From contig CAKZKA010000267.1 in NCBI GenBank assembly GCA_937120965.1, positions 1,556 through 65,555 on the forward strand: DNA of 64,000 bases, given 5' to 3'. Position numbers and translations under genes: made by a program. This document shows positions 660-61,466 of the stretch, piece after piece. Every line of letters begins with the position of its first letter. Position 1 is the stretch's first letter. The notes under the pieces are model-generated. The model saw only the letters and a list, made by a program, of their open reading frames with translations, was not told the DNA's origin and did no database searches. Origin of the DNA: an uncultured Chloroflexota bacterium (GTDB lineage Bacteria > Chloroflexota > Chloroflexia > Chloroflexales > Chloroflexaceae).

Positions 660-979
660 ACGCGTGGGGAAACCCGGTTTCCCCATCAGACGCGGGCGCC
701 TTGCGCGAACGATTGTGCCACAGAGCGCCTCCCGGCGCAAGCGTCAGGGGGGTATGGGTTCCCCCTTCTCCTGGGAGCGCAGGCAGGTCGTCCTCAAACG
801 CTGACCGGGGCGGGAACCCTCGCGCCCGGGCTGACGCCGACCCTCCGGCGCTTGAGTGTACCTGGCGCCGATATAATAACGGCGTGTCCGGCACCTCTCA
901 CCCGTGCGAGCGCGCGGCAGAGTCGCCCGCGCCGCCCCTCTCGTGCTCTTCTGAGGATGAGAGGCAGAAGAGGAGACCC

Positions 980-1981
980 ATGCTTACACCTGGCGACGTC
1001 AAGCGCGCCTTACAACATTATGACCTCGGAACGGTCCGCTCAGTGCGTCCAGCATCGCATGGCGTGGTCAACGAAACCGCATTCGTGGAAACGAGCAGCG
1101 GGCGCTACGTGGTGCGTCGCAACCAGCGGGCCACGGGGTGGGGCAGGCTCGAACTGCGGCACCAGTTGCTGAACTGGCTGCGCCTTCGGGCCTTTCCCAG
1201 CCCGCGCCTGATCCCCGCGCGCAATGGCGACAACGCCGTTGAAGTAGACGGCCGCGTCTTCGAGGTCTTCACCTTTATTGACGGCGACGAGTTCAATATC
1301 GACCGCCCGGCGCACATCAGCGGCACGGGCAGCATCCTCGCCCGCTACCACCGCACTGTCGAAGACTTCCCCTACCTGCCGCCGCCCGAAGCGCCACGCT
1401 ATAATCCCGGTTCGCTCCTCGGCCTGATCGAACGCCTGATGCAGCGCGACCTGATGGGCGAACTCTCCGAACCCCTGAACTGGTACGACCGCCGCGCTGC
1501 CCATCTGCGCGCGGTGCTGCCCACCGAGGCCTACAGCGCGCTGCCACACGTGCTCATTCACGGCGATATGCACCGTGATAATGTCATCTTCCGCGGCGAC
1601 ACTGTGGCCGCCCTGATCGACTTCGACCAGGTGACGGTAGATGCTCGCATCGTTGACCTGGCCGACGCCCTGGTGGATTTTACCGTCGGCGCCACTCCGC
1701 CCGACTGGTTCCCCTGGGGCGTGTACGCCGGCCCGCTCGACCAGCAGCGCGCTGCGTTGCTGCTGGAAGGCTATCATACCATCGCGCCGCTAACCAGCGC
1801 TGAGTGCAAGGCCCTGCCCGTGCTCGTCGAAGTGATCTGGCTCCAGGGCAACCTGCGCCGGGTGCTCGGCACCGCCGACGCCGAACCCGACTACCACCTC
1901 GAAGTGCTTCAGCAAGGTCGCCGGCTGTCCCTGTGGCTCCAGGAGCATCCCGACGTCCTTGCGGTCGAGGGGCAAGCCTGA
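980..1981 (+). CDS. Phosphotransferase family protein (APH / homoserine kinase type II-like)
   Basis: In-frame ATG at 980 preceded by GAGGAG. LIHGDMHRDNVIF and LIDFDQ match the HxDxxxxN catalytic and DFD metal-binding motifs. The first 110 codons of track ORF 650..1981 lie in repeat DNA. Confidence 0.7.
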   Translation: MLTPGDVKRALQHYDLGTVRSVRPASHGVVNETAFVETSSGRYVVRRNQRATGWGRLELRHQLLNWLRLRAFPSPRLIPARNGDNAVEVDGRVFEVFTFIDGDEFNIDRPAHISGTGSILARYHRTVEDFPYLPPPEAPRYNPGSLLGLIERLMQRDLMGELSEPLNWYDRRAAHLRAVLPTEAYSALPHVLIHGDMHRDNVIFRGDTVAALIDFDQVTVDARIVDLADALVDFTVGATPPDWFPWGVYAGPLDQQRAALLLEGYHTIAPLTSAECKALPVLVEVIWLQGNLRRVLGTADAEPDYHLEVLQQGRRLSLWLQEHPDVLAVEGQA

Positions 1982-2227
1982 TGTGAACATAGCCCGCCCA
2001 CGGGAGGCTTTGGGAGGGCGCAGTCCTCCCAGGAAACAACCCGCGCGCGGGGAGGGTTTGGGAGGGCACAGCTCTCCCAGGAAACAACCCGCCCGCGGGA
2101 GGGTTTGGGAGGGCACAGCCCTCCCAGGAAACAACCCGCCCGCGGGGAGGGTTTGGGAGGGCGCAGCCCTCCCAGGAAACAACCCGCCCGCGGGGAGGGT
2201 TTGGGAGGGCGCAGCCCTCCCGGAAAC
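1979..2227 (+). repeat. Terminal motif TGATGTGAACAT followed by five tandem 47-48-bp G4/hairpin (H) units
   Basis: Units start at 2002, 2050, 2097, 2145 and 2193. Each reads GGGAGGGTTTGGGAGGGC-N4-CCCTCCCAGGAAACAACCCGCCCGCG. Confidence 0.9.
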
Positions 2228-2263
2228 GTCTTTTACCTCTCCCGTCAACGAGGAGCAGTACCT

Positions 2264-2776
2264 ATGTCAGAACGACACGAATATACCGACGAAGAATGGG
2301 CAACCCTCATTGGCGCGCCCATCGCTGTGATCGCCGCCGTGATCGGCGCCAGTCCCAGCGGGCCGATTGGCATTTCGCAGGAGGTGGCCGCGGCGGTGCG
2401 CGCCTTCGAGGACGCCGCCGAAACCCGTCGCTCTAACCCACTCATTGCCTCAATGCTGATTACCCTCCGCGATCGCTTCAACGCCTATATCGGCAAAAGC
2501 CCCGACGATCCTGCCGTAGCGCAGGTTGACATCTTTGCCCTGGGCCGCGACCCCGCTCGCGCCGTGGCCGGCATCGGCGAGGCCGGCGCCCTGCTGGCGC
2601 GCAAGGCCCCCCCCGACGTGGCCGCGGAGGTGCGCGAATGGCTGGTTGACCTCAGCAACCAGGTGGCCCACGCCGCCGTCGAGGGCGGGTTCATGGGCAT
2701 GGGCGGCGAACGAGTCAACGAACGCGAACGGAATATCCTCGCCGAGATCGCTACCGCCCTGGGCGCCGAAGCATAA
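2264..2776 (+). CDS. Hypothetical protein (170 aa)
   Basis: ATG at 2264 lies 8 nt after AGGAG. The upstream part of track ORF 2105..2776 is the tandem repeat array. The coding-like composition starts at MSERHEYTDEEW. No family recognised. Confidence 0.55.
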   Translation: MSERHEYTDEEWATLIGAPIAVIAAVIGASPSGPIGISQEVAAAVRAFEDAAETRRSNPLIASMLITLRDRFNAYIGKSPDDPAVAQVDIFALGRDPARAVAGIGEAGALLARKAPPDVAAEVREWLVDLSNQVAHAAVEGGFMGMGGERVNERERNILAEIATALGAEA

Positions 2777-2845
2777 TCGCTGTTTATGCGGCGAAGCTGC
2801 ATAAAGACGAGATGAAAACAGGTTTGTTATGTACACCCTCCCGGT

Positions 2846-6054: not shown

Positions 6055-6300
6055 GGGGGAACCCGGTTCCCCCATGTCCCAACCGCTATTGGGAGCGGCT
6101 GGCGCCCCAGCCTGCAGGGGCGCGGTTCGACAAGCTCACCACAGGTGGGGAAACCCGGTTTCCCCGATGTTCACCTCAGCCGTCCATGCGGCTGCGCCGC
6201 ACAACGACAAAATGGGTTTTTCTTGGGAGGGCGTAGAGGCGCGGCGCTGCCGCGCCTCTACGCCCAAACCCTCCCGCGCGGCCTATTTTCACATCAGGAG
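6055..6300 (-). repeat. Composite repeat block
   Basis: Palindrome variant at 6055-6073. CCAACCGCT..AGCGGCTGG hairpin. GCGGTTCGACAAGCTCACCACAGGT. Perfect palindrome at 6148-6166. ATGTTCACCTCAG. TCCATGCGGCTGCGCCGCACAACG. A 17-bp-stem hairpin at 6229-6265. ATTTTCACATCAG. Confidence 0.85.
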
Positions 6301-10498: not shown

Positions 10499-10611
10499 GG
10501 CTGCGCCGCCTTTCCAGACATGTGGGCATATTATACACCCCGCCGGAATGCGACAACACAGGTCCCTGCGGTCCCTCAGAGTAATGATTTCTTAACTGAC
10601 CTTCCACTTCC

Positions 10612-10700
10612 CGGTGCGAACATATGGGGACCCCGGGGTTCCCCACGGCCCCTCGCTGAGAGGAGGGTTTGGGAGGGCGCAGCCCTCCCAGGAGCATCTT
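10612..10700 (+). repeat. GAACAT motif, palindrome variant and one H unit
   Basis: GCGAACATATGGGGACCCCGGGGTTCCCC (palindrome at 10627-10645), then GGAGGGTTTGGGAGGGCGCAGCCCTCCCAGGA. Confidence 0.75.
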
Positions 10701-12503: not shown

Positions 12504-12610
12504 GTGTTCACTCCTGGGGTAAGGCGTCACCCCGGGTGCGCGGGCGTCCCGCCCGCAATGGCCTGGATGCGGGTAAGATGCCCGCGTACCCCGGAGAAGT
12601 GTGAACACGT
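12504..12610 (+). repeat. R1 element copy 2
   Basis: Nearly identical to copy 1 over about 100 nt, with the same GTGTTCAC...GTGTGAACAC ends. Confidence 0.75.
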
Positions 12611-12829
12611 GCGTGCAGCGCTGCGGTGCCCCCCGCCCCCCACTCCAGTGAACCCGTTCCCATCCCGGGCATTCTACTCTCTTCGGTCTCCGCAGGCAGT
12701 AGCCCTTCGGTCCTGTTCGCAGGGGGTAGCCAGCCTGCTGCCCCCTGCCCATCGAGGCGCCAGGCGCCCCCATCACCGGTTGGGGGATGCGGCTGCTGGA
12801 TTGGCGCGCCTCCCCGGAAGAGTCAAGCA

Positions 12830-13185
12830 CACCATTCGCATTCGTTTATTCGTTTCCCATTCGTTGGCGTATTTCGTTTCCCCTGAGGTGAAAATATGGG
12901 GAAATCGGGTTTCCCCACCCCCCTCCCTGCGGGGAGGCGCCCGGTTCCCTCCCCCAGCGGGGGAGGGCCAGGGAGGGGGCGGCCCTCCCGAAGACGCCCT
13001 ATGTTCATCGCGGCGTTGTGCGCCATGCGTATGACCGTCTAAGATGAAAACGGGTTTTTCTCAGGAGGGCGTAGAGGCGCGGCGCCGCCGCGCCTCTACG
13101 CCCAAACCCTCCCGCGCGCGGGCTATGTTCACGCTGGACGCCCATGCGCGGGGCGCACAACGCCAGCATGCAACCGTGGGAGGGC
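12830..13185 (+). repeat. Composite repeat block
   Basis: ACGAAT-rich module at 12830-12867. CTGAGGTGAAAAT. Palindrome at 12898-12916. About 110-bp module GGCGCCCGGTTCCCTCCCCCAGCGGGGGAGGGCCAGGGAGGGGGCGGCCCTCCC...CGGCGTTGTGCGCC. A 17-bp-stem hairpin at 13067-13103. ATGTTCAC. Confidence 0.85.
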
Positions 13186-13188
13186 TAA

Positions 13189-13290
13189 TACCAATTACCG
13201 TTGATGATACCGCATTGCTTGAAGCGGTTTTAGGCGTTATGCTGCCCAGCGTGGCAATCCACAATCCAAAATCCAAAATCTAAAATGGTA
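13189..13290 (-). mobile_element. 102-bp MITE, subfamily A, flanked by a TAA/TAA duplication
   Basis: Ends TACCAATT...AAAATGGTA. TSD TAA at 13186-13188 and 13291-13293. It is inserted in the loop of a GGGAGGGGG/GCCCTCCC repeat hairpin. Confidence 0.8.
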
Positions 13291-13293
13291 TAA

Positions 13294-13455
13294 CCCCCTC
13301 CCTGACCCTCCCCCGCTGGGGGAGGGAACCGGGCGCCTCCCCACCGGCAGGGGGTTGGGGCAACCCGGTTTCCCCGGTTCCCAACCGCTGGTGGGAGCGG
13401 CTGGCGCCCCACCGGCAGGGGGTTGGGGCAACCCGGTTTCCCCATATGTTCGCAT
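13294..13455 (-). repeat. Composite repeat block with two palindromes
   Basis: Remainder of the GGGGGAGGG module. Palindromes GGGGCAACCCGGTTTCCCC at 13357-13375 and 13425-13443, separated by the CCAACCGCTGGTGGGAGCGGCTGG hairpin. ATATGTTCGCATCAG. Confidence 0.85.
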
Positions 13456-13564
13456 CAGGGTGCGTTACCGCGGACCGCGCGCATACGCTACCGGCGCGCT
13501 GACCAGCGCCGATCTGCGGTATGATAGAATGAGCAATCGCCAGACAGACCAGCAGGAGACCCCC

Positions 13565-15589: not shown

Positions 15590-15665
15590 GGGGACGAACG
15601 CTCCAAACCCTCCCCTCAGGCAGGGGTATGGGGAAACCCGGTTTCCCCATAGGTTCACCTCAGGC
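15590..15665 (-). repeat. Partial H unit, perfect palindrome and terminal motif
   Basis: CCAAACCCTCCCC...GGGGAAACCCGGTTTCCCC (15630-15648), then ATAGGTTCACCTCAG. Confidence 0.8.
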
Positions 15666-17099: not shown

Positions 17100-17165
17100 C
17101 TTCTCCACTCCTCACAGGCGGGGGAATGGAGAAACCCGGTTTCCCCATAGGTTCACTTCCGAGCC
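17100..17165 (-). repeat. Palindrome (1 mismatch) and terminal motif
   Basis: GGAGAAACCCGGTTTCCCC (17128-17146), then ATAGGTTCACTTCC. Confidence 0.7.
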
Positions 17166-17183
17166 GCGACGCTGGATGATTGA

Positions 17184-17285
17184 TACCATTTCAGATTGTA
17201 GATTTTGGATTGCAGATTGTCGCGCAAGGCGTCCAGGTACGCTTTGACGCAACGCTGCTTGCGGAGTGTTCAAGTGAAATTGGTA
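17184..17285 (+). mobile_element. 102-bp MITE, subfamily B, flanked by a TGA/TGA duplication
   Basis: Ends TACCATTT...AAATTGGTA. TSD TGA at 17181-17183 and 17286-17288. Confidence 0.8.
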
Positions 17286-17451
17286 TGACGCCTCTGCGTC
17301 TCCACAGCGTGCCTGACCGTATTGTCATCTACCGCGAGCCAGCGGCCCAACACGTTCCTGCGCTCAACATGGCTCAGCCCGGCGCACCGTGAGCGGGCCA
17401 GACAGGCGGAGTCCAGTGATGCCAGATTATCATATCGTTATCTGATACAAC

Positions 17452-17544: not shown

Positions 17545-18239
17545 GTGTTTATCGCCCTATCACGCGTGGCGCCGACACACCCCGGTTTCGGCCTGCGACG
17601 CCTGGCCCTGGTCATGCTCCTGACCCTGTCGTTGCTGCCCCTGCTGACCGTCGCCCTCTTCAGGCCAACGCCTGTCCTCCGCCCGCGACCCTCGGGGAAC
17701 GGCGCGCCGATGGCGCCTGCGTCTACAAGGCCAGCAACGCCCAGGCAGAGGATCTCTTCGGCACTTCCACCGCCGTCTCCGGCGATACCGTTGTCGTTGG
17801 CGCGCCCTACGAGGACGGTAGCGGCCCCATGCCGAACGAAAACGCCACCAACGCTGGCGCCGCCTACGTGTTCCTCAGCGACGACATCGCGCCCAGCGTG
17901 ACGGTCGAGCAGGCCGCGGGGCAACCCGACCCGGCCAGCGCCGGCCCCATCCTGTTCACCGCTACCTTCAGTGAGCCGATCAATCCCAGCACCTTCACCG
18001 CCACTGACGTGGCCCTTGGCGGCACGGCGGGCGGGACGCTCAGCGCCAGCCTCACCCCGGTAAACGCCACCACCTTCACCATCGCCGTCAGCGGCATGCG
18101 TAGCGCCGGAACGGTCACGGCCAGCATCCCCGCCGGGGCCGTCACCGACCCGCTGGGCAATCCCAACCTCGCCTCCACCAGCGCCGACAACAGCGTGACG
18201 TTTGAGTACCGGGTACTACTACCGCTGATCGTGAGGTAG
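17545..18239 (+). pseudogene. Secreted FG-GAP/Ig-like repeat protein interrupted by a 1-nt frameshift near 17660
   Basis: AAGGAGG is followed 5 nt later by GTG at 17545. This opens a classic signal peptide (MFIALSRVAPTHPGFGLRRLALVMLLTLSLLPLLTVALF) in the frame of ORF 17512..17901. The FG-GAP-like body (DLFGTSTAVSGDTVVVGAPYEDG...GAAYVF) is in the frame of ORF 17322..18239. Adding 1 nt at about 17660 would join them as ...TVALFQANACPPP. Confidence 0.6.
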
Positions 18240-18278
18240 ACAGCGTGGAGCCGCAGCCCGCCCGGCGCCGTCCACAGT

Positions 18279-22133: not shown

Positions 22134-22490
22134 ATGCTCGGTTCGTTTGCGCCCATCCTGATCCTCTTCCTGATCGCCGTCTTTATCGCGGTGTTCGTGA
22201 TCACCGTCTCCTCGCTCCTGGGGCCCAGGCGCAGCAGCCCGCGCAAGCTGGCGCCCTACGAGTCGGGCATGGAGCCAATCGGCCCCGCCATCCGGCGCAT
22301 TCCGGTAAAGTTCTACGTCGTGGCGATGCTGTTTATCGTCTTCGACATTGAAGTAGTCTTCTTCTACCCCTACGCCCTGGTCTTCCGGCAACTTGCCGTG
22401 CCGGGCCTGATCGCCATCGGCGTCTTCTTCCTGGTGCTCGTCGTCGGGTTCGTCTATGAATGGAGGAAAGGGGCCCTGACATGGGAATAG
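22134..22490 (+). CDS. nuoA: NADH-quinone oxidoreductase subunit A
   Basis: 118 aa, three TM helices, [11 protein letters not shown] and [10 protein letters not shown] motifs. Confidence 0.9.
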
Positions 22491-23017
22491 AGGAAAAGGC
22501 CGGTGATCTGGGGGTGATCACGACCTCCCTTGAATATGTCGTCAACTGGGGCCGCACCAACGCGATGTGGCCGCTCCTCTTCGGCCTGGCCTGCTGCGCC
22601 ATCGAGATGATGGGCGCGCAGAGCGCCAACTATGACCTGTCGCGCTTCGGGATGGAGATCAACCGCGCATCGCCCCGCCAGGCCGACCTGATGATCGTCG
22701 CCGGGCGCGTCAGCCGCAAGATGGCCCCGGTTGTGCGCCGACTTTATGACCAGATGAGCGACCCGAAGTGGGTGATCGCGATGGGCGATTGTGCCGCCTG
22801 CGGGGGGATCTTTAATAACTATGCCATTGTGCAGGGGGTGGATGAGGTCGTGCCGGTGGATGTCTATGTTGCCGGCTGCCCGCCCCGCCCCGAGGCGTTG
22901 ATTCACGGTATCATGCTTCTGCACGAGAAGGTTAAGCGCGAGAAGATCAGCGGCAAAAAAGAGGACCCGATCCGCCTCAGTCAGCCGCTGATCCAGGTTG
23001 ATGTGGCCAGGAAGTAG
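22481..23017 (+). CDS. nuoB: NADH-quinone oxidoreductase subunit B
   Basis: [19 protein letters not shown] and GCPPRPE are the cluster N2 cysteine motifs. The ATG at 22481 overlaps the end of nuoA; an alternative ATG is at 22460. Confidence 0.9.
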
Positions 23018-23174
23018 CCCTTCCATCGCTCCCGGCTGGTCACGACAATCTCACGAGCCAGCGTCTGCGCCGACGTTTGCCGAGCCGCCCGCTGCTCATC
23101 CGCAAGCTGCCAGCGAACACCGAAGTGACGTTTCCGCGGCAGCGCGCCAGCGTCACAGGATACAGGTCTTGCGT

Positions 23175-23693: not shown

Positions 23694-23741
23694 TGCGTTG
23701 CGCCCCCGCCCGGGGCGGGGCGCGTGCGCCGAGATACGCCC

Positions 23742-25815: not shown

Positions 25816-25846
25816 GCCCATTACCCCTAGAAATGCGAGCAGTGCC

Positions 25847-37240: not shown

Positions 37241-37261
37241 GCACATCACCAGTGGCGAGGT

Positions 37262-37356: not shown

Positions 37357-37371
37357 CTTTTCAGATCAGAA

Positions 37372-37482
37372 TACCATTGCGACCATCTACGATTTTAGAT
37401 TTTGGATTGTGGATTGCCACGCTGGGCAGCGCAACGCCTGAAACCGCTTCAAGCAATGCGGTATCATCAACGGTAATTGATA
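37372..37482 (+). mobile_element. Degenerate MITE copy, subfamily A (111 bp), between nuoM and nuoN
   Basis: TACCATTGCG...GATTTTAGATTTTGGATTGTGGATTGCCACGCTGGGCAGC...GGTAATTGATA. The ends are mutated and no TSD is recognisable. It ends 20 nt before the nuoN ATG. Confidence 0.65.
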
Positions 37483-37502
37483 TCACACAGGGAACTGAGC
37501 GT

Positions 37503-38966
37503 ATGGAGAGTCTACAGATCCCCCCGGTTGACCTGCGCCTGCTGACGCCCCTGTTGATCGTCGTTGGCTGGGCCGGGGCCTTGCTGCTGATTGATGTCTT
37601 CTTCGTTCCCGACGGGCGCAAGAAGATCACCGGCTACCTGGCAATTGCCGGCCTGGCCGTTGCGGGGCTGGCCGGCATCCCGCTGTGGAACCTGAGCGGC
37701 AGCACCTTCTCGGGCATGCTGGTGCTCGACCGCTACAGCCTGGCGCTGACCTGGATCTTCCTCATCGCCGGGGCGTTGAGCATCGCCGTAGCCCTGGACT
37801 ACCTGCCGCGGCACGCCATCGAGCAGGGGGAATACTACCCGCTGATCATGTTCGCCGTAGGGGGCATGATCCTGATGGCCCAGAGCGCCGACCTGATCAC
37901 CCTCTTTCTGGGCATCGAATTGCTATCAATCACCCTGTACATCCTGACCGGCTTCGCCTACCCGCGGGTAGCCTCGGAAGAGGCGGGGATGAAGTACCTG
38001 GTGCTGGGGGCCTTTGCCGCAGGGTTCTTTGTGTACGGCATCGCGCTGATCTTTGGCGCTACCGGCGCCACCAGCCTGGCCGGAATCGCCGCGTACCTGG
38101 GCCGGCAACCCTTCGCGCCGCAGGAAGAAACCCTCTTCCTGGCCGGCGCAAGCCTGGTGTTGATCGGCTTCAGCTTCAAAATCGCCCTGGTGCCCTTCCA
38201 CATGTGGACACCCGATGTCTACGAAGGCTCGCCGACGCCGGTGGCAGCGTTCATGAGCGTCGGCACCAAAGGCGCCGCCCTGGCGGCGCTCCTGCGGGTC
38301 ACACTGGCTCTGGAAGAGGCGCAGACCTTCTGGCTGCCGATCCTGGCAGTGCTGGCGGCGGCGACGATGATCCTCGGCAACCTGGGGGCGCTGGGGCAGA
38401 GCAACCTGAAACGCATGCTGGCCTACTCCAGCATCGGTCACGCCGGCTACATCCTGCTGGGGATCATGGTCGCGGCGGAGCGGGGGGCGGAGGCGTTCCT
38501 GTTCTACATCCTGGCGTACACCCTCACCAATCTGGGCGCCTTCGGTGTGCTGATCGCCCTGGAGCAGCGGGGCGAGGCGGCCTGGAGCATTGACGACTTC
38601 GCGGGACTGTACCAGCGCCGGCCCCTGCTGGCGGTGGCGATGGCCCTGTTTATGTTCTCCCTGGCCGGTGTGCCGCCCACCGCCGGCTTTATGGGCAAGT
38701 TCTTCATCTTCACCGCGGCCTACGCCGGAGGTCTGGGCTGGCTCGTGCTCATCGGCGTGCTGACCAGCGCCATCGCCGCCTACTACTACCTGCGCGTGGT
38801 GGTGAAAATGTTCATGCAAGAGCCGGTGCGCGAGGTGCGCCCGGAACTCACCCGCGGACTGAACACCGAGATCCTCATCGCCGGAGTCGCTACCCTGATC
38901 CTGGGCCTGTTGCCCACCCCGATTGTGCTGCTCGTGGAGCGCTCGCTGGTGGCGCTGGGGGGCTAG
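37503..38966 (+). CDS. nuoN: NADH-quinone oxidoreductase subunit N
   Basis: ATG at 37503 (MESLQIPPVDLRLL). FKIALVPFHMWTPDVYEGSPTPVAAF. The track ORF start at 37167 lies in nuoM and repeats. Confidence 0.9.
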   Translation: MESLQIPPVDLRLLTPLLIVVGWAGALLLIDVFFVPDGRKKITGYLAIAGLAVAGLAGIPLWNLSGSTFSGMLVLDRYSLALTWIFLIAGALSIAVALDYLPRHAIEQGEYYPLIMFAVGGMILMAQSADLITLFLGIELLSITLYILTGFAYPRVASEEAGMKYLVLGAFAAGFFVYGIALIFGATGATSLAGIAAYLGRQPFAPQEETLFLAGASLVLIGFSFKIALVPFHMWTPDVYEGSPTPVAAFMSVGTKGAALAALLRVTLALEEAQTFWLPILAVLAAATMILGNLGALGQSNLKRMLAYSSIGHAGYILLGIMVAAERGAEAFLFYILAYTLTNLGAFGVLIALEQRGEAAWSIDDFAGLYQRRPLLAVAMALFMFSLAGVPPTAGFMGKFFIFTAAYAGGLGWLVLIGVLTSAIAAYYYLRVVVKMFMQEPVREVRPELTRGLNTEILIAGVATLILGLLPTPIVLLVERSLVALGG

Positions 38967-44964: not shown

Positions 44965-45461
44965 CCGAGGTAAAAATAGGGGAAACCGGGTTTCCCCAGG
45001 CCCCTGCCTGGAGGGGCGCCAGCCGCTCCCACCAGCGGTTGGGAAATGGGGAAACCGGGTTTCCCCACCTGTGGTGAGCTTGCCGAACCACGCCCCTCCC
45101 TGCGGGGAGGCGCCCGGTTCCCTCCCCCAGCGGGGGAGGGCCAGGGAGGGGGCGACCCTCCCAGAGATACCCCTGGTTTCATCGCGGCGTTGTGCGCTCC
45201 GCGCATGGGCGTCTAAGTGAAAATAGGTGGGGAAACCGGGTTTCCCCAGGCCCCTGCCCGGGGGCGGATTTGCACGCTTCTCGCCACGGGGGCAGGGGCA
45301 ACCCCCTCGCCCCACGCCCCTCCTGGCAGGAAGGGTCCGAGCGGGTGTAGCGTGCTCAGGCCCTCCCGTTCAAGAACGCACGGGATGCCGAGGTGCGGAG
45401 ATGAAGGCCATGGTGGGATGCGCAACAGGGGCGTGGTACAGCCGGGATTCCCGTATGTTCA
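44965..45461 (+). repeat. Composite repeat block between the CHAD and CYTH genes
   Basis: Perfect palindromes at 44979-44997, 45048-45066 and 45229-45247. AGCCGCTCCCACCAGCGGTTGG hairpin. GGTGAGCTTGCCGAACC module. About 110-bp GGGGGAGGG module. Degenerate palindrome plus TATGTTCAG at the CYTH stop. Confidence 0.85.
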
Positions 45462-46065: not shown

Positions 46066-46692
46066 TTGTTCGCGGAAACCGGGGTTTCCCGTACTACTCC
46101 CTGCCCGGCGGGAGGGTTGCGAGCGTTCTGTCCTCTTCCAGCCCTCTGCTGGGGGAATGCGCCTGACTCCCTCTCCAGGCGGGGGAGGGTCCGGGAAGGC
46201 GAAGCCCTCCCAGGAGAATCGCTCTTCAGTCATCCATGCGGCTGCGCCGCACAACGACAAGATGAACATGGATTTTTCCTGGGAGGGCGCAGCCCTCCCA
46301 AACCCTCCCCGCTGGCGGGTTGGTTCCTGGGAGGGCTGCGCCCTCTCAAGCCCTCCCGCGGGCAGGCTATTTTCACCTCAGGCACCATTCGCGGGGCGCA
46401 CAACGCCGCGATGACCATAGGGCGTCTTCGGAAGGGCCGCCCCCTCCCTGGCCCTCCCCCGCTGGGGGAGGGAACCGGGCGCCTCCCCGCAGGGAGGGGA
46501 TTGGGGAAACCTGGGTTCCCCGTATGTTCACCTCAGGCGGTCATGCGCATGGCGCACAACGCCGCGATGACCATGGGGCGTCTTTGGGAGGGCCGCCCCC
46601 TCCCTGGCCCTCCCCCGCTAGGGGAGGGAACCGGCCTCCTCCCCGCAGGCAGGGGAATGGGGAAACCCGGTTTCCCCGTATTTTCACCTCAG
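46066..46692 (-). repeat. Composite repeat block including two tandem ~156-bp units
   Basis: Degenerate palindrome at 46072-46090 and two reverse-oriented H units at 46270-46360. Tandem units at 46381-46535 and 46536-46692 each consist of the GGGGGAGGG module, a palindrome (46503-46521 and 46659-46677) and (T)ATGTTCACCTCAG. Confidence 0.85.
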
Positions 46693-46944
46693 TCCTGTCA
46701 TACGGGGCGCGGCCGTAAGAATATCTATCAGGATACCATATTTTCCTGAATCAGGATCGAAACAGCGTTTCCGCGACAGAGCCGTTGCAACGTCGCCGGG
46801 GCAAGCCTCGAACCGGAAACCGCGCGTGGAGGCGGCTACACCGCCTCAAACCCTGGCGTCGGAGGCAGATCTGCAACCGCCCCGGGTTCCGGGAGGGCCG
46901 TGCCCTCCCGGACCAGCTTTTGAAGAACGCGCCGGACGCATGCC

Positions 46945-48874: not shown

Positions 48875-49089
48875 GTGTTCACATTTGGGGTAATACCATT
48901 TTGGATTTTAGATTTTGGATTGTGGATTGCCACGCTGGGCAGCACAACGCCTGAAATCGCTTCAGGCAATGCGGCATCATCAACGGTAATTGGTATAAGG
49001 CGTCAACCCGGGTGCGCGGGCGTCCCGCCTGCAATGGCCTGGAATGCGGGCAAGATGCCCGCGCTCCCAGGAGAAGTGTGAATACGTAC
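48875..49089 (+). repeat. R1 element copy 3, interrupted by a MITE
   Basis: Left part is 48875-48893 and right part 48996-49089. They are collinear with copies 1 and 2 once the 102-bp insertion is removed. Confidence 0.8.
48894..48995 (+). mobile_element. 102-bp MITE, subfamily A, flanked by TAA/TAA, nested inside the R1 element
   Basis: TSD TAA at 48891-48893 and 48996-48998. Removing the element plus one TAA restores GGGGTAAGGCGTCA, the sequence seen in uninterrupted R1 copies at 566-579 and 12517-12530. Confidence 0.85.
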
Positions 49090-49099: not shown

Positions 49100-49265
49100 C
49101 TCAAGGGCTGACAGGATGCGCACGGGTTTTTTTCCCTGAGAGGGCTGCGCCCGCCCAGACTCCTCCCTCGGAGAGGGGTATGGAGAAATCCGGGTTCCCC
49201 ATACTCTGACATGATAGAGACAGTTTTTTGGGGGAGGGCTTGGCCCTGCCAAACCCTCCCGCGCG
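49100..49265. repeat. Degenerate palindrome and H-like hairpin upstream of comEC
   Basis: GGAGAAATCCGGGTTCCCC (49182-49200), then GGGGGAGGGCTTGGCCCTGCCAAACCCTCCC. Confidence 0.6.
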
Positions 49266-49330: not shown

Positions 49331-50824
49331 ATGCTTATTCGTCTGGCAATCGCCTGGATGCTGGGGATCGTCATTGCCGAGCAGGCCCGCCCCCCAACGG
49401 GCTGGCTGTGGGCTGCGGCGGGGGTGGGGCTGGTCATGGCGCTGGCCGTCCGGGGTCAGCAGCGAGGCACACTACGCCTGGCGGCCCTCGCGCTGCTGTG
49501 CGCGGCTCTGGGCGGGCTACGCTACATGGGCACGCTGCCGGCCCTGGGGCCGCAGAGCGTGAGCAGCCTGAGCGGGCGGGGCGAGGTCGTGCTCACGGGC
49601 AGCGTGGCCGGCGAGCCACGCCGCAGTGAGGAGCAGCAGCGCGTGGTGCTCCAGGTCGAGACGGCCACGGTAGAGGGAGCGACCGCGGCCTACGAGGGGC
49701 TGGTGCTGGTGGTATTACCGCCCTACCCTGCCTATGCCTACGGCGATCGGCTCGAGGTTCGGGGCGCGTTGCGCCGTCCGCGGGGCGCAGAGCGGCCCGG
49801 CGAGTTCGATTACCGGGCCTACCTGGCCCATCGCGGCATCTTTGTGATGATGACCAAACCCGAAGAGGCGCGCCGGCTGACGGGCCAGGACGGTCTGGCG
49901 CCCTTGCGGGCCGTGCTTGCCTTTCGCGCTCATTGCCAGGCGGTGCTGCTGCGCACCTTGCCCGAACCCCAGGCCGCCCTGGCAATCGGGGTCGTTCTTG
50001 GCATTCAGTCAAGCATCCCCGACGAAGTGTACCGAACCTTTTCGATCACCGGTACGAGCCATATCCTGGTAGTATCGGGATGGAACTTCACGATTGTGGC
50101 GGGGATGCTGGGAGCGCTGGCGGCACGCCTGCGCCTGGGGCGAGGGGCAACCCTGGCGCTGGCGCTGGCGGTGATGTGGGTCTATGCCGTGTTTACCGGC
50201 GCCTCGGCGGCGGTGCTACGGGCGGCAGCCATGGCCAGCCTGGCCGCCGTGGCCCGCGCCACCGACCGCAGCAGCGAGCCGTGGCATCTGCTCCTCGGCG
50301 CGTGCTGGCTGATCACTCTGGCAGACCCACACACGCTCTGGGACCCGGGGTTCCAGCTCTCGGCGCTGGCAACGGCCAGCCTCTTCGCCTACGCCACGCC
50401 GGTGGCGGCGTGGTTTAACCGGCGGCCCTTCAACTGGCCGATGATGGCTCCGGTCACAGAGGCACTGGTGGCAACATTCGCTGCCCAGGCGCTCACCCTG
50501 CCGCTGATCTTATACGCCTTTGGCAACCTCTCGCTGGTGGCGCCACTGGCGAATATCGTGATCGTGCCGGTGGTGCCATTCGCTATGGCTCTGGGCGCAC
50601 TGGCGCTGGTAGGCGGCCTGATCTGGCTCCCGTTGGGGCAGTGGCTGGCCCTGGGGGCATGGCTGCCCTTCACCTGGATCGCCGAGGGGGCGCGCCTTCT
50701 GGCCATGCCACGCTGGGCCAGCGCGCAGGTGCCACCATTCCCGCTGTGGCTGCTCCTGGGTTGCTATGCCGCCATCGGGCTGCACTGGTGGAGCAGGCTA
50801 CGCACCGCGGGAGAGAGCGCCTGA
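49331..50824 (+). CDS. comEC: ComEC/Rec2-family DNA internalisation channel protein (no beta-lactamase domain)
   Basis: ATG at 49331 after GGAGGGAG. Polytopic membrane protein. FSITGTSHILVVSGWNFTIV resembles the competence-domain motif. The stop TGA is embedded in CTGAGGTGAACAT. Confidence 0.7.
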   Translation: MLIRLAIAWMLGIVIAEQARPPTGWLWAAAGVGLVMALAVRGQQRGTLRLAALALLCAALGGLRYMGTLPALGPQSVSSLSGRGEVVLTGSVAGEPRRSEEQQRVVLQVETATVEGATAAYEGLVLVVLPPYPAYAYGDRLEVRGALRRPRGAERPGEFDYRAYLAHRGIFVMMTKPEEARRLTGQDGLAPLRAVLAFRAHCQAVLLRTLPEPQAALAIGVVLGIQSSIPDEVYRTFSITGTSHILVVSGWNFTIVAGMLGALAARLRLGRGATLALALAVMWVYAVFTGASAAVLRAAAMASLAAVARATDRSSEPWHLLLGACWLITLADPHTLWDPGFQLSALATASLFAYATPVAAWFNRRPFNWPMMAPVTEALVATFAAQALTLPLILYAFGNLSLVAPLANIVIVPVVPFAMALGALALVGGLIWLPLGQWLALGAWLPFTWIAEGARLLAMPRWASAQVPPFPLWLLLGCYAAIGLHWWSRLRTAGESA

Positions 50825-51165
50825 GGTGAACATACGGGGAAACCAGGTTTCCCCATCCCCCTCCCCGAGGGGAGGGTTTGGGAGGGCTTCGCCCTCCCGA
50901 GAATAATTATTTTCATTCCGGCGTTGTGCGGCGCAGCCGCATGTGAGGTGAACATACGGGGAAACCGGGTTTCCCCATCCCCCTCCCTGCGGGGAGGGTT
51001 TGGGAGGGCTTCGCCCTCCCGAGAATAATTATTTTCATTCCGGCGTTGTGCGGCGCAGCCGCATGGATGACTGAGGTGAACATAGGGGGAAACCGGGTTT
51101 CCCCATACCCCCGCCCACGGGAACGTGAACATATGGGGCAACCGGGTTTCCCCTCGCCCCCTCCC
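50821..51165 (+). repeat. Tandem composite units (periods 122 and 128 bp) downstream of comEC
   Basis: GGTGAACAT heads at 50825, 50947, 51075 and 51125. Palindromes at 50836-50854, 50958-50976, 51086-51104 and 51135-51153. The first two units are near-identical through GGGAGGGCTTCGCCCTCCCGAGAATAATTATTTTCATTCCGGCGTTGTGCGGCGCAGCCGCATG. Confidence 0.9.
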
Positions 51166-51230
51166 TGTGGGACGACAGGCCCCCGGAAGCACACTGCGTG
51201 GCGCGGGTATGCTATACTTGGCGCGCTGTG

Positions 51231-51776
51231 ATGACGAACGCGATCGATCTTACGCCATTGATCCAGGCCATTCACGCGGCGCCCCAACGCCTGGTGTATG
51301 TTTTCGCCGGAGCAGGGAGCCTGGCGCTGCACTGGCTTCACGCCGTCGCCGGCTCGTCGCGCACGCTGCTCGAGGCCCGCGATTGCTACGCGCCCCGCAG
51401 CCTGGCGGTCGTCCTTGGTGCGCCCCCGGCCCGTGCTGTCAGCGTCGAGACGGCCAGCGCAATGGCCGATTGGGCCTGGAAGTATGCCGCCAGCCTGGCC
51501 GAAGGCCCCTGGCCGCTGCTCGGGGTGGGTTGCACCGCGGCGATCGTCACCGACCGGGCGCGCCGGGGCGCCGATCGGGCGGTGGTCGCCGTGCGCTCGG
51601 CCAGCGCTACGCGGATCTATGAGCTGCTCCTCGCCAGGGAGCGCCGCGACCGGGCCGGCGAAGAGGCGCTGATCAGTCGCCTGGTCGTCCTGGCGATCGC
51701 CGAAGCATGCGGTCTGGGAGCAGTGCATCTGGACCTGGAGCCGGGTGAGGCGCTGCATCTGGCGGGGATGGGCTGA
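51231..51776 (+). CDS. Hypothetical protein, distant CinA/PncC-like pattern
   Basis: AGSSRTLL...AVSVETASAMA...GVGCTAAIVTDRARRG loosely follows the CinA C-terminal domain pattern. The start is uncertain (ATG 51231 or GTG 51198). The stop TGA is embedded in CTGAGGTGAACA. Confidence 0.4.
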   Translation: MTNAIDLTPLIQAIHAAPQRLVYVFAGAGSLALHWLHAVAGSSRTLLEARDCYAPRSLAVVLGAPPARAVSVETASAMADWAWKYAASLAEGPWPLLGVGCTAAIVTDRARRGADRAVVAVRSASATRIYELLLARERRDRAGEEALISRLVVLAIAEACGLGAVHLDLEPGEALHLAGMG

Positions 51777-51860
51777 GGTGAACAGAGGGGAAACCGGGTT
51801 TTCCCACCCGCGGTGAGCCTGTCGAACCGCGCCCTCCCGATGGGGCGGGTTCGGGAGGCC
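51773..51860 (+). repeat. Terminal motif, palindrome and GGTGAGCCTGTCGAACCGC module
   Basis: CTGAGGTGAACAGA, GGGGAAACCGGGTTTTCCC (51787-51805), ACCCGCGGTGAGCCTGTCGAACCGCGCCCTCCC. Confidence 0.8.
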
Positions 51861-52719: not shown

Positions 52720-52794
52720 GGGCCTGGAGGGTATCGGTTGCACCACGAAGGCACGAAGATCGTGCGGATGGGCGGCGCGGACGTTTCCCTGTAA

Positions 52795-52896
52795 TACCAT
52801 TTTAGATTTTAGATTTTGGATTGTGGATTGCCACGCTGGGCAGCACAACGCTTAAAACCGCTTCAAGCAATGCGGCATTATCAACGGTAATTGGTG
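52795..52896 (+). mobile_element. 102-bp MITE, subfamily A, flanked by TAA/TAA
   Basis: TSD TAA at 52792-52794 and 52897-52899. The last TIR base is mutated (AATTGGTG). It lies between the convergent nth and GPH transporter genes. Confidence 0.8.
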
Positions 52897-52928
52897 TAAG
52901 TCAATGCTGCTTTTTCGCCTCCAGGTTG

Positions 52929-58295: not shown

Positions 58296-58600
58296 CCTGA
58301 GGTGAAAATAGCCCGCGCGCGGGAGGGTTCGGGGTGCCGGGGGGGGCGGGGTTGGCCCCCGCCCCAAATAGCCCGCGTGCGGGAGGGTTCGGGAGGGCGA
58401 GGCCCTCCCAGGAAACAACCCGCCAGCGGGGAGGGTTTGGGAGAGCTTCGCCCTCCCAAGAATAGGTATTTTCATTCCGGCGTTGTGCGGCGCAGCCGCA
58501 TGGATGACTGAGGTGAACATACGGGGAAACCGGGTTTCCTCAACCCCCTCCCTGAGGGGAGGGTTTGGGAGGGCTTCGCCCTCCCAAAAACAAACCTGTT
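58296..58600 (+). repeat. Composite repeat block between the PQQ-like gene and eutC
   Basis: CTGAGGTGAAAATAGCCC head. Three H-type units. GGCGTTGTGCGGCGCAGCCGCATGGATGA. CTGAGGTGAACATAC. Palindrome at 58523-58540. One more H unit. Confidence 0.85.
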
Positions 58601-59395: not shown

Positions 59396-59439
59396 AGGGA
59401 ACCTCCTCGGCGAGAGGCGCCATTCGTGGAACGTACAAC

Positions 59440-59645
59440 ACCTCCCCACAGGCAGGGGCGTGAGGAAACCCGGTTTCCCCCTATGTTCACCTCAGTCATC
59501 CATGCGGCTGCGCCGCACAATGCCAGAATGAAAATATTTGTTCTTGGGAGGGCTTCGCCCTCCCAAACCCTCCCCGCTGGCGGGTTGTTTCCTGGGAGGG
59601 CGAAGCCCTCCCAAACCCTCCCGTACACGGCCTATTTTCACATCA
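59440..59645 (-). repeat. Composite repeat exactly filling the eutB-eutC spacer
   Basis: Palindrome at 59462-59480. TATGTTCACCTCAG. TCATCCATGCGGCTGCGCCGCACAATGCC. Two reverse H units. CTATTTTCACATCAG, whose TCA is the complement of the eutB stop. Confidence 0.9.
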
Positions 59646-61040
59646 GACACGCGCGCTGGCGAGCCGAGCCACTTCCCGGAGCAGGCGAGGCTGCTCACGC
59701 GGAGCCAGGCGTCCATCAGGCTCGATGATACCCATCGCGATAAGCCAGGCTTCAAACTCCGGGGCGGGTCGCAGGCCCAGGGTGGTTTGCACGAAGCGCA
59801 CATCGTGGTACGAGGTGCTCTGGTAGTTGAGCATCACATCATCGGCGCCGGGCACGCCCATAATGTACGCGCAGCCGGCCACTCCCAACAGTACCAGGAG
59901 GTTGTCCATATCGTTCTGGTCGGCTTCGGCGTGGTTCGTGTAGCAGGCATCGCAACCCATCGGCACACCCATCAGGCGACCGCAGAAGAGATCTTCGAGC
60001 GCGGCGCGGATGATCTGCTTGCCATCGTAGAGGTATTCAGGGCCAATGAAACCAACCACGGTGTTGACCAGCAGCGGCTCAAAGTGGCGAGCCACCGCGT
60101 AGGCGCGGGCCTCACAGGTTTGCTGGTCAACACCATGATGAGCATTGGCCGAAAGGGCGCTGCCCTGACCGGTTTCAAAATACATCACGTTATCGCCGAT
60201 GGTGCCGCGCCCCAGGGCCAGCGCGGCGGCGCGCGCCTCGCGCAACAGGGCCAGATCGATCCCGAATGAGCGGTTGGCAGCTTCGGTGCCGGCAATTGAC
60301 TGGAAGACCAGGTCCACCGGGGCATGGCGTTCGATAGCCGTAATCTGGGTGGTGACGTGGGCCAGTAATGAGGACTGGACAGGGATGGCGTAGCGCTGGC
60401 GCAGGTCATCAATCAGCTCAAGCAGGGCTATCACGGCCTGCGGGCTATCGGTAGCGGGATTGATGCCGATCACCGCATCGCCGCAGCCGTGGAGCAGGCC
60501 GTCGAGGATCGAAGCGGCGATGCCGCGGGGATCGTCAGTGGGATGGTTGGGCTGGATGCGCGACGAGAAGCGCCCGGGCAGCCCGATCGTCGTGCGAAAG
60601 CGCGTCACCACACGGCACTTGCGGCTGATAGCCACCAGATCCTGGTTGCGCATGATCTTCGACACCGCAGCGGCCATCTCGGGCGTGATGCCGGGGGCCA
60701 GGGCGGCCAGAGCTGTATCGTCGGTCGCATAGGACAGCAGCCATTCGCGGAAAGCGCCCACGGTGAGGCTGCTGACGGGGGCAAAGGCAGCGCGATCGTG
60801 GGTGTCAAGGATCAAGCGCGTCACTTCGTCGTCCTCGTAGGGGATCAGCGGTTCCTCGAGGAAGGTGGTCAGCGGCACATCGGCCAGGCACAGTTGGGCA
60901 GCAACCCGTTCTTCGGCGCTCTCGGCAGCCAGACCGGCGAGCTGGTCGCCTGAGCGTTCAGGAGTGGCCTTTGCCATGAGCGTCTTGAGATCGTCGAACT
61001 GGTAGGTGCGTCCGCCGAGAGTTCGGGTGTAGGGCGCCAT
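59643..61040 (-). CDS. eutB: Ethanolamine ammonia-lyase heavy subunit
   Basis: MAPYTRTLGGRTYQFDDLKTLMAKATPERSGDQLAG is the typical EutB N-terminus. 465 aa. The stop TGA is embedded in the repeat motif CTGATGTGAAAAT. Confidence 0.9.
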   Translation of the reverse strand: MAPYTRTLGGRTYQFDDLKTLMAKATPERSGDQLAGLAAESAEERVAAQLCLADVPLTTFLEEPLIPYEDDEVTRLILDTHDRAAFAPVSSLTVGAFREWLLSYATDDTALAALAPGITPEMAAAVSKIMRNQDLVAISRKCRVVTRFRTTIGLPGRFSSRIQPNHPTDDPRGIAASILDGLLHGCGDAVIGINPATDSPQAVIALLELIDDLRQRYAIPVQSSLLAHVTTQITAIERHAPVDLVFQSIAGTEAANRSFGIDLALLREARAAALALGRGTIGDNVMYFETGQGSALSANAHHGVDQQTCEARAYAVARHFEPLLVNTVVGFIGPEYLYDGKQIIRAALEDLFCGRLMGVPMGCDACYTNHAEADQNDMDNLLVLLGVAGCAYIMGVPGADDVMLNYQSTSYHDVRFVQTTLGLRPAPEFEAWLIAMGIIEPDGRLAPREQPRLLREVARLASARV

Positions 61041-61069
61041 AACTCCTCCTGGGACGGTGATGCAGTGAG

Positions 61070-61345
61070 TCTGGGGAAACCCGGTTTCCCCATATGTTCA
61101 CGTCAAGATCGGATGCGGCTGCACCGCGCAATGAAAGGATGAAAACTGATTTATTTTTGGAAGAGCTAAGCCTTCCCAACTCCTCCCCTCAGACAGGGGC
61201 GTGGTTCGGCAAGCTCACCACAGGTGGGGAAACCCGGTTTCCCTATGTCCCAACCGCCGTTGAGGGCGCCTGGCACCTCCACAGGCAGGGGTGCGGTTCG
61301 ACAGGCTCACCGCAGGTGGGGAAACCCCATTTCCCCGTATTTTCA
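61070..61345 (-). repeat. Composite repeat in the eat-eutB spacer
   Basis: Palindromes at 61073-61091 (perfect), 61226-61244 and 61318-61336. Two GGTTCG(G/A)CA(A/G)GCTCACC(A/G)CAGGT modules. ATGTTCACGTCAAG and ATTTTCACCTCAG. Confidence 0.85.
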
Positions 61346-61466
61346 CCTCAGGAAACAACCCATCGTGGCGAAGGTGGGGAAGCGGGAGCAAGACGCAGCT
61401 ACTGGCTGCCGGAGGGGTAACCAGATTTCCCCTCTGGCAGCCAGCTTCGTGGCGAGCGGCAAACCG

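Follow-up and report, generated by a model that had tools for sequence, protein, structure and literature searches.

In Escherichia coli, repetitive extragenic palindromes (REPs) stabilize upstream mRNA, and bacterial interspersed mosaic elements (BIMEs) bind IHF and gyrase. In the neisserial intergenic mosaic elements (NIME), 20-bp palindromes called dRS3 flank variable RS units of 50 to 150 bp, in hundreds of copies and in intergenic arrays, and dRS3 is an integration site for filamentous phage. Mycobacterial interspersed repetitive units (MIRUs) are tandem 40- to 100-bp units that lie in operon spacers and overlap the upstream stop codon. Here, we analyzed a 64-kb stretch of DNA from an uncultured member of the Chloroflexaceae (contig CAKZKA010000267.1, positions 1,556 to 65,555; hereafter, the window), in which a 19-nt palindrome, H1, recurs between genes. 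An earlier reading of the letters alone (the sequence-only reading) had placed this palindrome inside a larger oriented unit, and we found that H1 is the commonest internal hairpin of modular units with defined ends: the palindrome is no free-standing site but belongs to a mosaic repeat family specific to this lineage. We conclude that the family represents, in one lineage, a kind of genome repeat that is already known, REP/BIME-like or like miniature inverted-repeat transposable elements (MITEs). In the part of Di Nocera et al. (PMC3733652) on which we draw, REP superfamilies are defined by a GTAG or CGTC tag, and the Chloroflexi case is apparently Thermomicrobium roseum only (GTAG-23).

H1 (GGGGAAACC-S-GGTTTCCCC; the 19-mer GGGGAAACCSGGTTTCCCC) is a perfect 9+1+9 palindrome. 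An exact search found 12 perfect copies in the window, starting at 666, 6147, 15630, 25742, 35545, 44979, 45048, 45229, 46659, 50958, 51086, and 61073, with none in 100 dinucleotide-preserving shuffles; at up to three mismatches there are 32 copies versus 0.04 expected. The sequence-only reading had counted at least 30 copies, exclusively intergenic, and both points hold, as all 32 are non-coding. Its coordinates were right for 11 of the 12 perfect copies (6148 should read 6147) and for the copies with one to three changes, apart from 10627 (now 10626), 61424 (now 61414), and 7330, which has four mismatches. On the Pfam-supported gene map, 33 of 33 copies lie outside coding sequence; six overlap maximal open reading frames (ORFs; copies at 666, 13357, 13425, 37336, 44979, and 45048), all of them in 5′ extensions that precede the portion of the gene supported by Pfam or aligned with orthologs. 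Of the window, 18% is non-coding DNA, and 21 of its 40 spacers contain H1. Copies with a central G have GTGAACATA to the left (8 of 8) and those with a central C have TATGTTCAC to the right (8 of 8), so that the covariation of centre and flank noted earlier extends to all 16 informative copies, with none discordant; we take the copies, therefore, to descend from oriented masters. More broadly, H1 is bordered by ACATAY or GGGGNRT on one side and by AYNCCCC on the other. It folds with an energy of -10.9 kcal/mol as RNA and -6.7 kcal/mol as DNA, and the computed fold has the anticipated 8-bp stem and 3-nt loop, with no T-run after H1 in either orientation. No Rfam family reached its gathering score anywhere in the window (the best sub-threshold match to a repeat array was PhotoRC-I, at 25.5 of the 45 bits required), the plasmid, phage, and viral collections searched held no match to the H1 repeat, and a literature search for the sequence returned none, in keeping with the first impression that it was not a recognized repeat.

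The recurring modules number at least eight, of which H1 is only one. In a hairpin census of the window, H3 (GGGAGGGC-N3-GCCCTCCC) has 16 perfect copies versus 13 for H1, both entirely non-coding, and perfect hairpins with stems of at least 8 bp number 40 in the non-coding 18% versus 15 in the coding 82%. Of 11.6 kb of non-coding DNA, strictly matched module cores take up 2.6 kb or more, versus 82 nt of coding DNA. Each unit opens with a pentamer, CT(G/A)AN, followed by the J box, GTGAACATAY (GTGAACATA); its interior carries one to six hairpin modules out of H1, H2 (CCCTCCC-N4-GGGAGGG), H3, H4, H6, H7, and H8; and the right end of a complete unit is the H5 box, TATGTTCAT-N9-GTGCGGCGSAGCCGCATGGACGG, followed by CTGAN or, more loosely, CT(G/A)AN. 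Alignment of all J-H1 units gave a sharp left boundary, CTGAK then GTGAACATA, upstream of which the sequence is unique unless an H5 box precedes it. Clade counts, here and below, refer to 427 kb of carrier loci from related genomes. There, the pentamer before J boxes (n = 163) is CTAAC in 39 cases, CTGAG in 18, CTGAT in 10, and CTGAC in 8; CT(G/A)AN directly follows the H5 box in 40 of 73 cases, also where no J follows; and the distance from J to H5 is 94 to 344 nt, complete units measuring 95-340 bp. Units that lack H1 altogether have the same ends as those that contain it.

When the spacers are written as strings of modules, four patterns recur: J(GTGAACATA)-H1-H2-H3, with or without H5; J-(H6-H3)n, whose 48-bp tandem arrays lie at 1983-2269, 35133-35480, and 58302-58460; J-H1-H4-H2(-H3); and H1-H7-H1. 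Successive units are linked by the H5 box and run head to tail, one pentamer separating each from the next, also within the nuo and eut operons, and adjacent H1 copies share centre base and orientation at distances of 42 to 92 nt. We rejected a CRISPR array, because what separates the H1 copies is not unique sequence but further repeated modules (H2, H3, H7). The two ends of a unit are related by a 9-bp inverted repeat, GTGAACATA/TATGTTCAT, whose right copy lies about 40 nt inside the H5 end; at 10 nt from the left end lies a hairpin (H1, in the units that have it), at 7 nt from the right end another (that of H5, TGCGGC-GCA-GCCGCA), and the two differ in sequence. A complete 122-nt unit folds at -71 and -68 kcal/mol on its two strands (z about -5 relative to shuffles; -5.6 for the -71 kcal/mol fold), J pairing with TATTTTCAT and thereby closing a three-hairpin junction (H1, H2, H3).

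Taking one genome per species, we found the 19-mer, among the matches listed, in multiple copies per contig in the Chloroflexaceae/Chloroflexales metagenome-assembled genomes (MAGs) H28_384, H89_884, H113_106, RM_bin5_OCT21, SKW209, and L1_Bin, where the J, H3, and H5 modules occur as well. We then compared orthologous nuo loci gathered from metagenomes. A conspecific contig (L086; 98% identity over 19.3 kb) has identical repeats with no insertion or deletion in them, one H1 differing from that of the window by a point mutation. Sister species (L088, L087, L143, and L100; 88-90% nucleotide identity) have the same module families in other spacers: the TGT-IDH spacer is empty in the window (62 nt) and filled in L088 (678 nt), nuoB-nuoC measures 143 nt versus 366 nt and nuoH-nuoI 48 nt versus 508 nt in the same comparison, while nuoE-nuoF and nuoL-nuoM are filled in the window only. 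More distant loci (L149, L142, L089, and L090; about 80-84% identity, NuoF at most 91%) have compact spacers and zero H1 or H3 matches, and eight nuo-region spacers sum to about 2.2 kb in the window versus about 0.6 kb in L149. The repeat family thus appears, from the loci compared, to be confined to a genus-level Chloroflexaceae clade. Because sister species have different spacers filled, we conclude that units have been gained and lost site by site since the split and that the elements therefore are or were mobile.

The explanation that we favor, and consider probable, is that structured units are mobilized in trans into CT(G/A)AN sites and then undergo local amplification and decay, their hairpins having secondary effects on transcripts. 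Units would be copied to new sites, now or formerly, by an enzyme encoded elsewhere in the genome, with the CT(G/A)AN pentanucleotide as the insertion target; because this pentamer contains TGA or TAA, the insertion site would often be the stop codon of the upstream gene. The enzyme may be a single-strand transposase of the HUH/Y1 type (a REP-associated tyrosine transposase, RAYT, or an IS200-like enzyme), which would fit the hairpins, or a DDE transposase making a 5-bp duplication. In Chloroflexales MAGs, rayT, IS5, and TnpA are the main mobilome genes (PMC7486959), and HUH and DDE candidates are therefore both plausible in this order. Further insertions at the flanking CTGAN, together with slippage, would enlarge the arrays, and deletion would erode them. 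The stems may be kept because the single-stranded hairpin matters, either as DNA in mobilization or as RNA in transcripts, and hairpins inserted into mRNAs may secondarily serve as 3′-end barriers or attenuators, as E. coli REPs do. In favor of this explanation we count the modular grammar with defined ends, the restriction to non-coding DNA, the gain and loss between sister species, the descent from oriented masters, the pairing constraint on the stems, the coincidence with stop codons, and the presence of a Y1 transposase with REP clusters in the sister genus Chloroflexus (contig L090).

The gene ends in the window can be set beside this proposal. The APH-family kinase gene, nuoE, nuoL, ComEC, ORF 51198-51776, and eutB all have the TGA of CTGAK as their stop codon; across the clade, 15 long ORFs stop at the stop codon of the pentamer and 18 at the TGA inside J. 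When J is followed by ATAG or ATAA, stop codons stand in all three frames, and where J supplies the stop codon, H1 starts 11 nt later. The nuoL gene ends in CGC TGA G both in the window, where the spacer is filled, and in L149, where it is empty, which fits insertion at a pre-existing CTGAG; in the sister species it ends in CGT TAA or CGT TAG. We rejected a MIRU-like reading of the units as small ORFs, for they lack a conserved start codon and their lengths are not divisible by three.

Several observations weigh against mobilization in trans. The association with stop codons is partly trivial, because the sole neutral gap in compact operons is the 2 to 4 nt after a stop, and in the nuoJ-nuoK spacer three lineages have three unrelated inserts at this same gap. 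Among strains 99% identical to one another, the sole polymorphism is an 89-nt internal deletion in a repeat array (L088:5331-5418 versus L143, L087, and L100) that takes half an H3 and an entire H5 box and whose ends are not at CT(G/A)AN; this is decay, not recent transposition. The 19 kb compared at 98% identity show neither gain nor loss of a unit and thus do not demonstrate recent activity, and no pair of filled and empty sites with exact insertion boundaries was found among the orthologous spacers compared. Outside the hairpin cores, dispersed copies are no more than 60-90% alike. The searches for an enzyme, which covered the window and the carrier loci (about 0.5 Mb of clade DNA in total), add to these points. 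We queried the ORFs of the window and of 175 loci with E. coli rayT (phmmer), with a Chloroflexus RAYT from L090, and with a profile of 120 RAYTs. The profile found no PF01797 ORF in the window, as the sequence-only reading had stated, and nothing in the roughly 430 kb of carrier loci either; RAYT-like ORFs occur only in loci that do not carry the repeats, namely L090, L010, and five fetched relatives. A search of the window and the same carrier loci for multi-copy ORFs returned orthologs only and no insertion sequence. The five relatives of the Chloroflexus RAYT (P0003, P0004, P0092, P0110, and P0091, three of them picked by amino-acid composition) have no flanking H1, H3, or H1-adjacent J box and instead have their own TGCGG...CCGCA REPs or none. 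As candidate autonomous elements we considered J...H5 intervals of more than 400 nt and rejected them, as they enclose ordinary genes (a polysaccharide-synthesis gene).

Of the rival explanations, the one that best survives, and that we nonetheless consider unlikely, is that the hairpins are functional RNA elements selected at each site, acting as 3′-end stabilizers, as terminators or attenuators without a U-tract, or as ribosome-stalling elements close to stop codons, with the repeats being a recruited module. The RNA hairpins are stable, many copies lie within operons or right after stop codons, and tmRNA-dependent down-regulation is reportedly triggered by REPs that lie no farther than about 15 nt from a stop codon, a result ascribed to Liang, Rudd and Deutscher in 2015. 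The stems are constrained by pairing, which we count for the favored explanation: among 315 clade H1 copies (144 perfect), the A5-T15 pair is replaced by G-C in 16 copies or C-G in 5 and A7-T13 by C-G in 11, and H3 keeps a constant stem with 31 different loop triplets. Such complementary changes in both arms, together with the constant H3 stem, favor single-strand pairing over recognition of half-sites in a duplex. A slight excess of G.U over A.C in the mRNA sense (27 versus 16) would speak for the RNA explanation and is not significant, nor is the comparison of G.T with A.C relative to the element (71 versus about 52). Across the clade, the orientation of H1 to its flanking genes is unbiased (43 sense and 35 antisense copies, in 26 and 21 spacers), and there is therefore no evidence of selection on RNA in one sense; 32 copies lie in convergent spacers and, also against this rival, 42 in divergent promoter spacers. 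Orthologous spacers of the sister species are empty or differently filled, so that no site-specific function is conserved. The GAGGTGA of the J box, which resembles a Shine-Dalgarno sequence, is not conserved (the sister lineage has CTAACGTGA), and we reject a Shine-Dalgarno role for it. We also reject an intrinsic terminator, given the lack of a T-run or U-tract, the unbiased orientation, and the copies in divergent spacers.

Thermoleophilia provide the remaining argument for an RNA element. Among the matches listed, those to the 19-mer outside the Chloroflexi came from Gaiellales/Thermoleophilia MAGs (Actinomycetota; loci L003, L010, L014, L018, L022, L025, L027, L034, L035, L037, L039, L042, L052, L054, L057, L061, L062, L068, L069, L071, and L078). 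Here, H1 is extended to a 13-bp stem (-22.8 kcal/mol), TCACG-GGGGAAACCSGGTTTCCCC-CGTGA(G)CCCCCTCG, in the context CTTCACG-H1-CGTG(A/G)GCCCCCTCG, and because the matches have this flanking context in common they are not due to chance. There is one copy per locus, with no arrays and no J, H3, or H5 modules, and no description of this hairpin was found in the literature searched. About 17 of 23 copies lie 5 to 50 nt after the end of a gene, a tRNA (Trp, Arg, Ser), or tmRNA, mostly in one orientation relative to the gene; the genes upstream include groEL-like ones ending in GGMM*. Several copies precede a canonical terminator hairpin, and a C-rich tract, CCCCCTC, follows a few bases downstream, as it does for H1 in the clade. 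The occurrence of the 19-mer in both phyla could reflect convergence, transfer, or a shared host factor; convergence is possible because only 4^9 nine-bp stems exist. A further reading, which we regard as quite unlikely, is that the units are undescribed hairpin-rich mobile elements that home to stop codons at CT(G/A)AN, sometimes supplying the stop, with an H1 core in common with the 3′-end hairpins of Thermoleophilia. If this were true, it would imply either spread of a hairpin element between phyla or a conserved host factor that recognizes this exact hairpin, for example a nuclease or a termination or processing factor.

We consider it very unlikely that H1 is itself the REP of a classical REP or REPIN population maintained by a RAYT. 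The sequence-only reading had likened the palindrome to REP/BIME systems, and the likeness is sound as regards high copy number, extragenic location, and GC-rich hairpins in a mosaic; it fails in that there is no tag (neither GTAG nor CGTC stands next to H1) and H1 doublets are direct rather than inverted. No RAYT, flanked by the palindrome or otherwise, was found in the roughly 0.5 Mb of clade DNA searched. H1-less units having the same ends also speaks against H1 as the REP. A classical REP/RAYT system does exist in the sister genus: L090, a Chloroflexus sp. contig, encodes a PF01797 RAYT at 1844-2395 (minus strand), 97% identical to a protein annotated as a REP-associated tyrosine transposase, a few kilobases from the nuo operon and with its own REP clusters on both sides (GTATGGCG-TGCGGCAGC-CAT-GCTGCCGCA; region L090:1190-4120). 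That locus and the rayT genes reported in Chloroflexales MAGs (PMC7486959) speak for this rival, and the outer stem of the H5 hairpin is the same as that of the REPs beside those RAYTs, which is a lead, not a test.

The last alternative, raised in the sequence-only reading, is that H1 is bound by a dimeric protein as an operator or other duplex site, for example by a nucleoid-associated protein or a global regulator, or as a gyrase-type site. It draws on the perfect 9+1+9 symmetry of H1, on its strictly intergenic presence in half of the spacers, and on the binding of IHF and gyrase by E. coli BIMEs. We consider it highly improbable, given that the centre base is linked to an asymmetric flank (16/16), that H1 sits in larger copied units with other, unrelated palindromes and is stacked at 42-92-nt spacing, that subfamilies keep pairing rather than base identity through complementary changes in the two arms, and that positions are not conserved between sister species.

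The units themselves are spread over the whole window, which has a G+C content of about 65%. Our gene map, built from long ORFs with high third-position G+C and from Pfam, shows in order an APH-family kinase, an M16 peptidase, a CAAX protease, an MFS transporter, a two-component pair (HisK and a response regulator), a GH99-like enzyme, HD, Orn/DAP decarboxylase, DUF445, FG-GAP, TGT, and IDH-CBS proteins, a complete nuoA-N operon (22134-38966), two acetyl-CoA synthetases, CHAD/Ppx, CYTH, ComEC, HhH-GPD, a second MFS transporter, a PQQ-propeller protein, and a permease-eutB-eutC operon on the minus strand. No transposase was found among these genes, and a search of the window for tRNA genes found none. 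An exact look-up of a window protein, intended to extend the contig, gave no record. Binned at 4 kb, the GC skew is negative at 1-24 kb, where genes are on the plus strand, and positive at 44-64 kb, where they are on the minus strand, its sign thus following the C-rich coding strand; the change of sign is therefore not evidence of a replication origin, and the skew is of no use for gauging a replication-strand bias. The conspecific L086 lacks similarity to the window left of 17726 (L086:1-2050; region 17726-18240), which is a rearrangement or assembly breakpoint, and its FG-GAP gene has an extra repeat of about 300 bp, a copy-number variation of a coding tandem repeat.

At the left of the window, a solitary perfect H1 with central C lies upstream of the APH-family kinase gene (666-684, minus strand), preceded by a J-like GTGAACACGTA at the end of another repeat (553-662). 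This second conserved repeat (GGGGTAAGGCGTCACCCCGCGTGCGCGGGCGTCCCGCCCGCAATGGCCTGGATGCGGGCAAGATGCCC...) occurs at 553-662, 12504-12613, 48990-49043, and L083:2613-2728, its copies being 91-96% identical to each other and 93% identical to a related MAG contig. At 1978-2269 (plus strand), CTGAT and a J box lead into a 48-bp (H6-H3) tandem array without H1, the unit beginning at the APH stop codon (TGA, 1979-1981). Upstream of the M16 peptidase gene, J, two H2 modules, and an H1 with one mismatch (2880) occupy 2828-2898 on the minus strand. Between the M16 peptidase and CAAX protease genes, and antisense to both, is a minus-strand array at 6055-6297: H1(6055)-H7-H4-H1(6147)-J-CTCAG-H5, a 17-bp-stem hairpin, and J(6284)-ATCAG. 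Two perfect 17-bp-stem hairpins lie within repeat arrays, at 6229-6265 and 13067-13103, with the stem core GGCGCGGC.... Between the minus-strand HisK and GH99 genes, at 10611-10690 (plus strand), J(GCGAACATA) is followed by an H1 variant with a compensatory change, GGGGACCCCGGGGTTCCCC, and by H2 and H3. The divergent-promoter spacer at 12756-13458 holds two opposed arrays: plus-strand J, H1(12898), H2, H8, H3, and an TATGTTCAT-H5-like segment; then minus-strand H8, H1(13357), H7, H1(13425), and J. H2-H1(15630, perfect)-J-CTCAG (15608-15663, minus strand) lies in the convergent spacer of the OrnDC and DUF445 genes. An H1 with one mismatch and a J (17128-17161, minus strand) adjoin a copy of a separate repeat of about 110 nt, which is more A+T-rich, MITE-like with inverted ends ATACCATT...AATTGGTAT, and present at 17180-17289, 37377-37486, 48890-48999, and 52791-52900; three of these four copies adjoin an H1 copy, just upstream of a gene start.

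In the nuo operon, the nuoE-nuoF spacer comes first, where CTGAG-J(GTGAACCTG)-H1(25742)-H2-H3 occupies 25727-25806 (plus strand), the nuoE stop codon (25728-25730) being the TGA of CTGAG. In nuoF-nuoG, an H1 with one mismatch, perfect in the conspecific L086, is followed by H2 and an H3-like module (27202-27266, plus strand); in the sister species (L088:11323-11884), a different tandem repeat of about 68 nt (GACCATAAGCCCTCGGCTAGGCAAGGCGAAGCCCGCCTGCGCGGGCGAGAGCGGAGTAGTTGGTCAAC) replaces this unit. In nuoL-nuoM, three stacked plus-strand units follow the nuoL stop (CGC TGA G) and fill the spacer (35128-35625): J(35133)-(H6 H3)x2; J(35334)-(H6 H3)x3-TATGTTCAT-H5; and J(35535)-H1(35545)-H4-H2 with an H3-like module. 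This spacer measures 555 nt versus 46 nt in L149. In nuoM-nuoN, H3-H2-H4-H1(37336) with a degenerate J and CTGAT lies antisense to the operon (37268-37370, minus strand). The nuoJ-nuoK spacer corresponds to 32669-32870 in the window, L088:17693-17836, and L002:3755-3781 (compact, 26 nt), and the insert of L088 is a long hairpin, (GTGGAG)n/(CTCTACAT)n.

To the right of nuo, a plus-strand array at 44979-45300 lies antisense to the CHAD/Ppx and CYTH genes that flank it: H1(44979)-H7-H1(45048), an H4-like module, H2-H8-H3, and then J(45217)-H1(45229). An 883-nt spacer is nearly filled with units (46072-46910, minus strand), first an H1-like sequence (46072), H3, a minus-strand H5, (H3 H6), and a minus-strand J (46368), and then H8 H2 H1(46503) with a minus-strand J, H3 H8 H2 H1(46659) with a minus-strand J, and H3(46890). 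Upstream of the ComEC gene is H3-H1(49182, three mismatches)-H3 (49137-49251, minus strand). Four stacked units start from the ComEC stop codon (CC TGA G; 50821-51175, plus strand): two complete 122-nt units, J-H1-H2-H3-TATTTTCAT-H5-CTGAG, 98% identical to one another, followed by J-H1(51086) and J-H1(51135). CTGAG-J(GTGAACAGA)-H1(51787)-H4 with an H2-like module (51773-51850, plus strand) sits where ORF 51198-51776 has its stop codon. Antisense to eutC, and downstream of that gene, is CTGAG-J(58302)-(H6 H3)x2-H5-CTGAG-J(58513)-H1(58523)-H2-H3 (58297-58590, plus strand). Between eutB and eutC are two units in the sense of the operon (59440-59646, minus strand), reading eutB stop (C TGA T)-J-(H6 H3)x2-H5-CTGAG-J-H1(59462)-H2. 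Finally, the spacer between the amino-acid permease gene and eutB holds a minus-strand array (61073-61432), J(61338)-H1(61318)-H4, an H7-like module, H1(61226), and H4..H3, then H5-J(61093)-H1(61073); the last H1 lies 33 nt before the eutB start, and a weak H1-like copy lies at 61414.

Together, the repeats account for more than one-fifth of the non-coding DNA of the window, have roughly quadrupled the spacer length of the nuo operon, and have split the normally coupled eutB-eutC pair, which makes them one of the chief forces shaping the intergenic regions of this Chloroflexaceae lineage. MAG assemblies also break at them: copies stand within about 100-300 nt of the ends of many carrier contigs. 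The family offers a tractable case outside the Proteobacteria for studying the origin of REP-like hairpin families and the enzyme that moves them, and for asking whether translation or mRNA decay is affected by hairpins placed 11 nt past a stop codon. In addition, the J box, H1, H3, and H5 signatures could serve as lineage markers in hot-spring and wastewater metagenomes.

Compared with known systems, the family resembles REP/BIME in having short, GC-rich, high-copy hairpins that are strictly extragenic, including inside operons, and in combining hairpins with conserved linker motifs in mosaic clusters, with complementary stem subfamilies and a species-specific sequence. It differs from them in that no GTAG or CGTC occurs here, successive hairpins run head to tail rather than alternating or inverted, several unrelated hairpin families share a unit with fixed J and H5 ends, and no RAYT was found nearby. 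With NIME, it shares a palindrome of about 20 bp that brackets variable repeat modules in intergenic arrays, but sequence and phylum are unrelated, and H1 is in no viral contig searched. As in MIRUs, units in operon spacers overlap a stop codon, and the 48-bp (H6-H3) arrays resemble variable-number tandem repeats; unlike MIRUs, most units have lengths that are not multiples of three (61-73 and 122 nt), lack a conserved start codon, and occur in both orientations. Like MITEs and palindrome-associated transposable elements (PATEs; IS200/IS605-derived), the units are non-autonomous, 100-300 bp long, and strongly structured, with conserved ends, a variable interior, CT(G/A)AN on both sides, and presence or absence between related genomes. 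They differ from these elements in that the left and right hairpins are unrelated in sequence and that, of the two copies of the 9-bp inverted repeat (GTGAACATA/TATGTTCAT), the left one stands at the very end of the unit and the right one some way inside it; no TnpA or autonomous partner was found in about 0.5 Mb.

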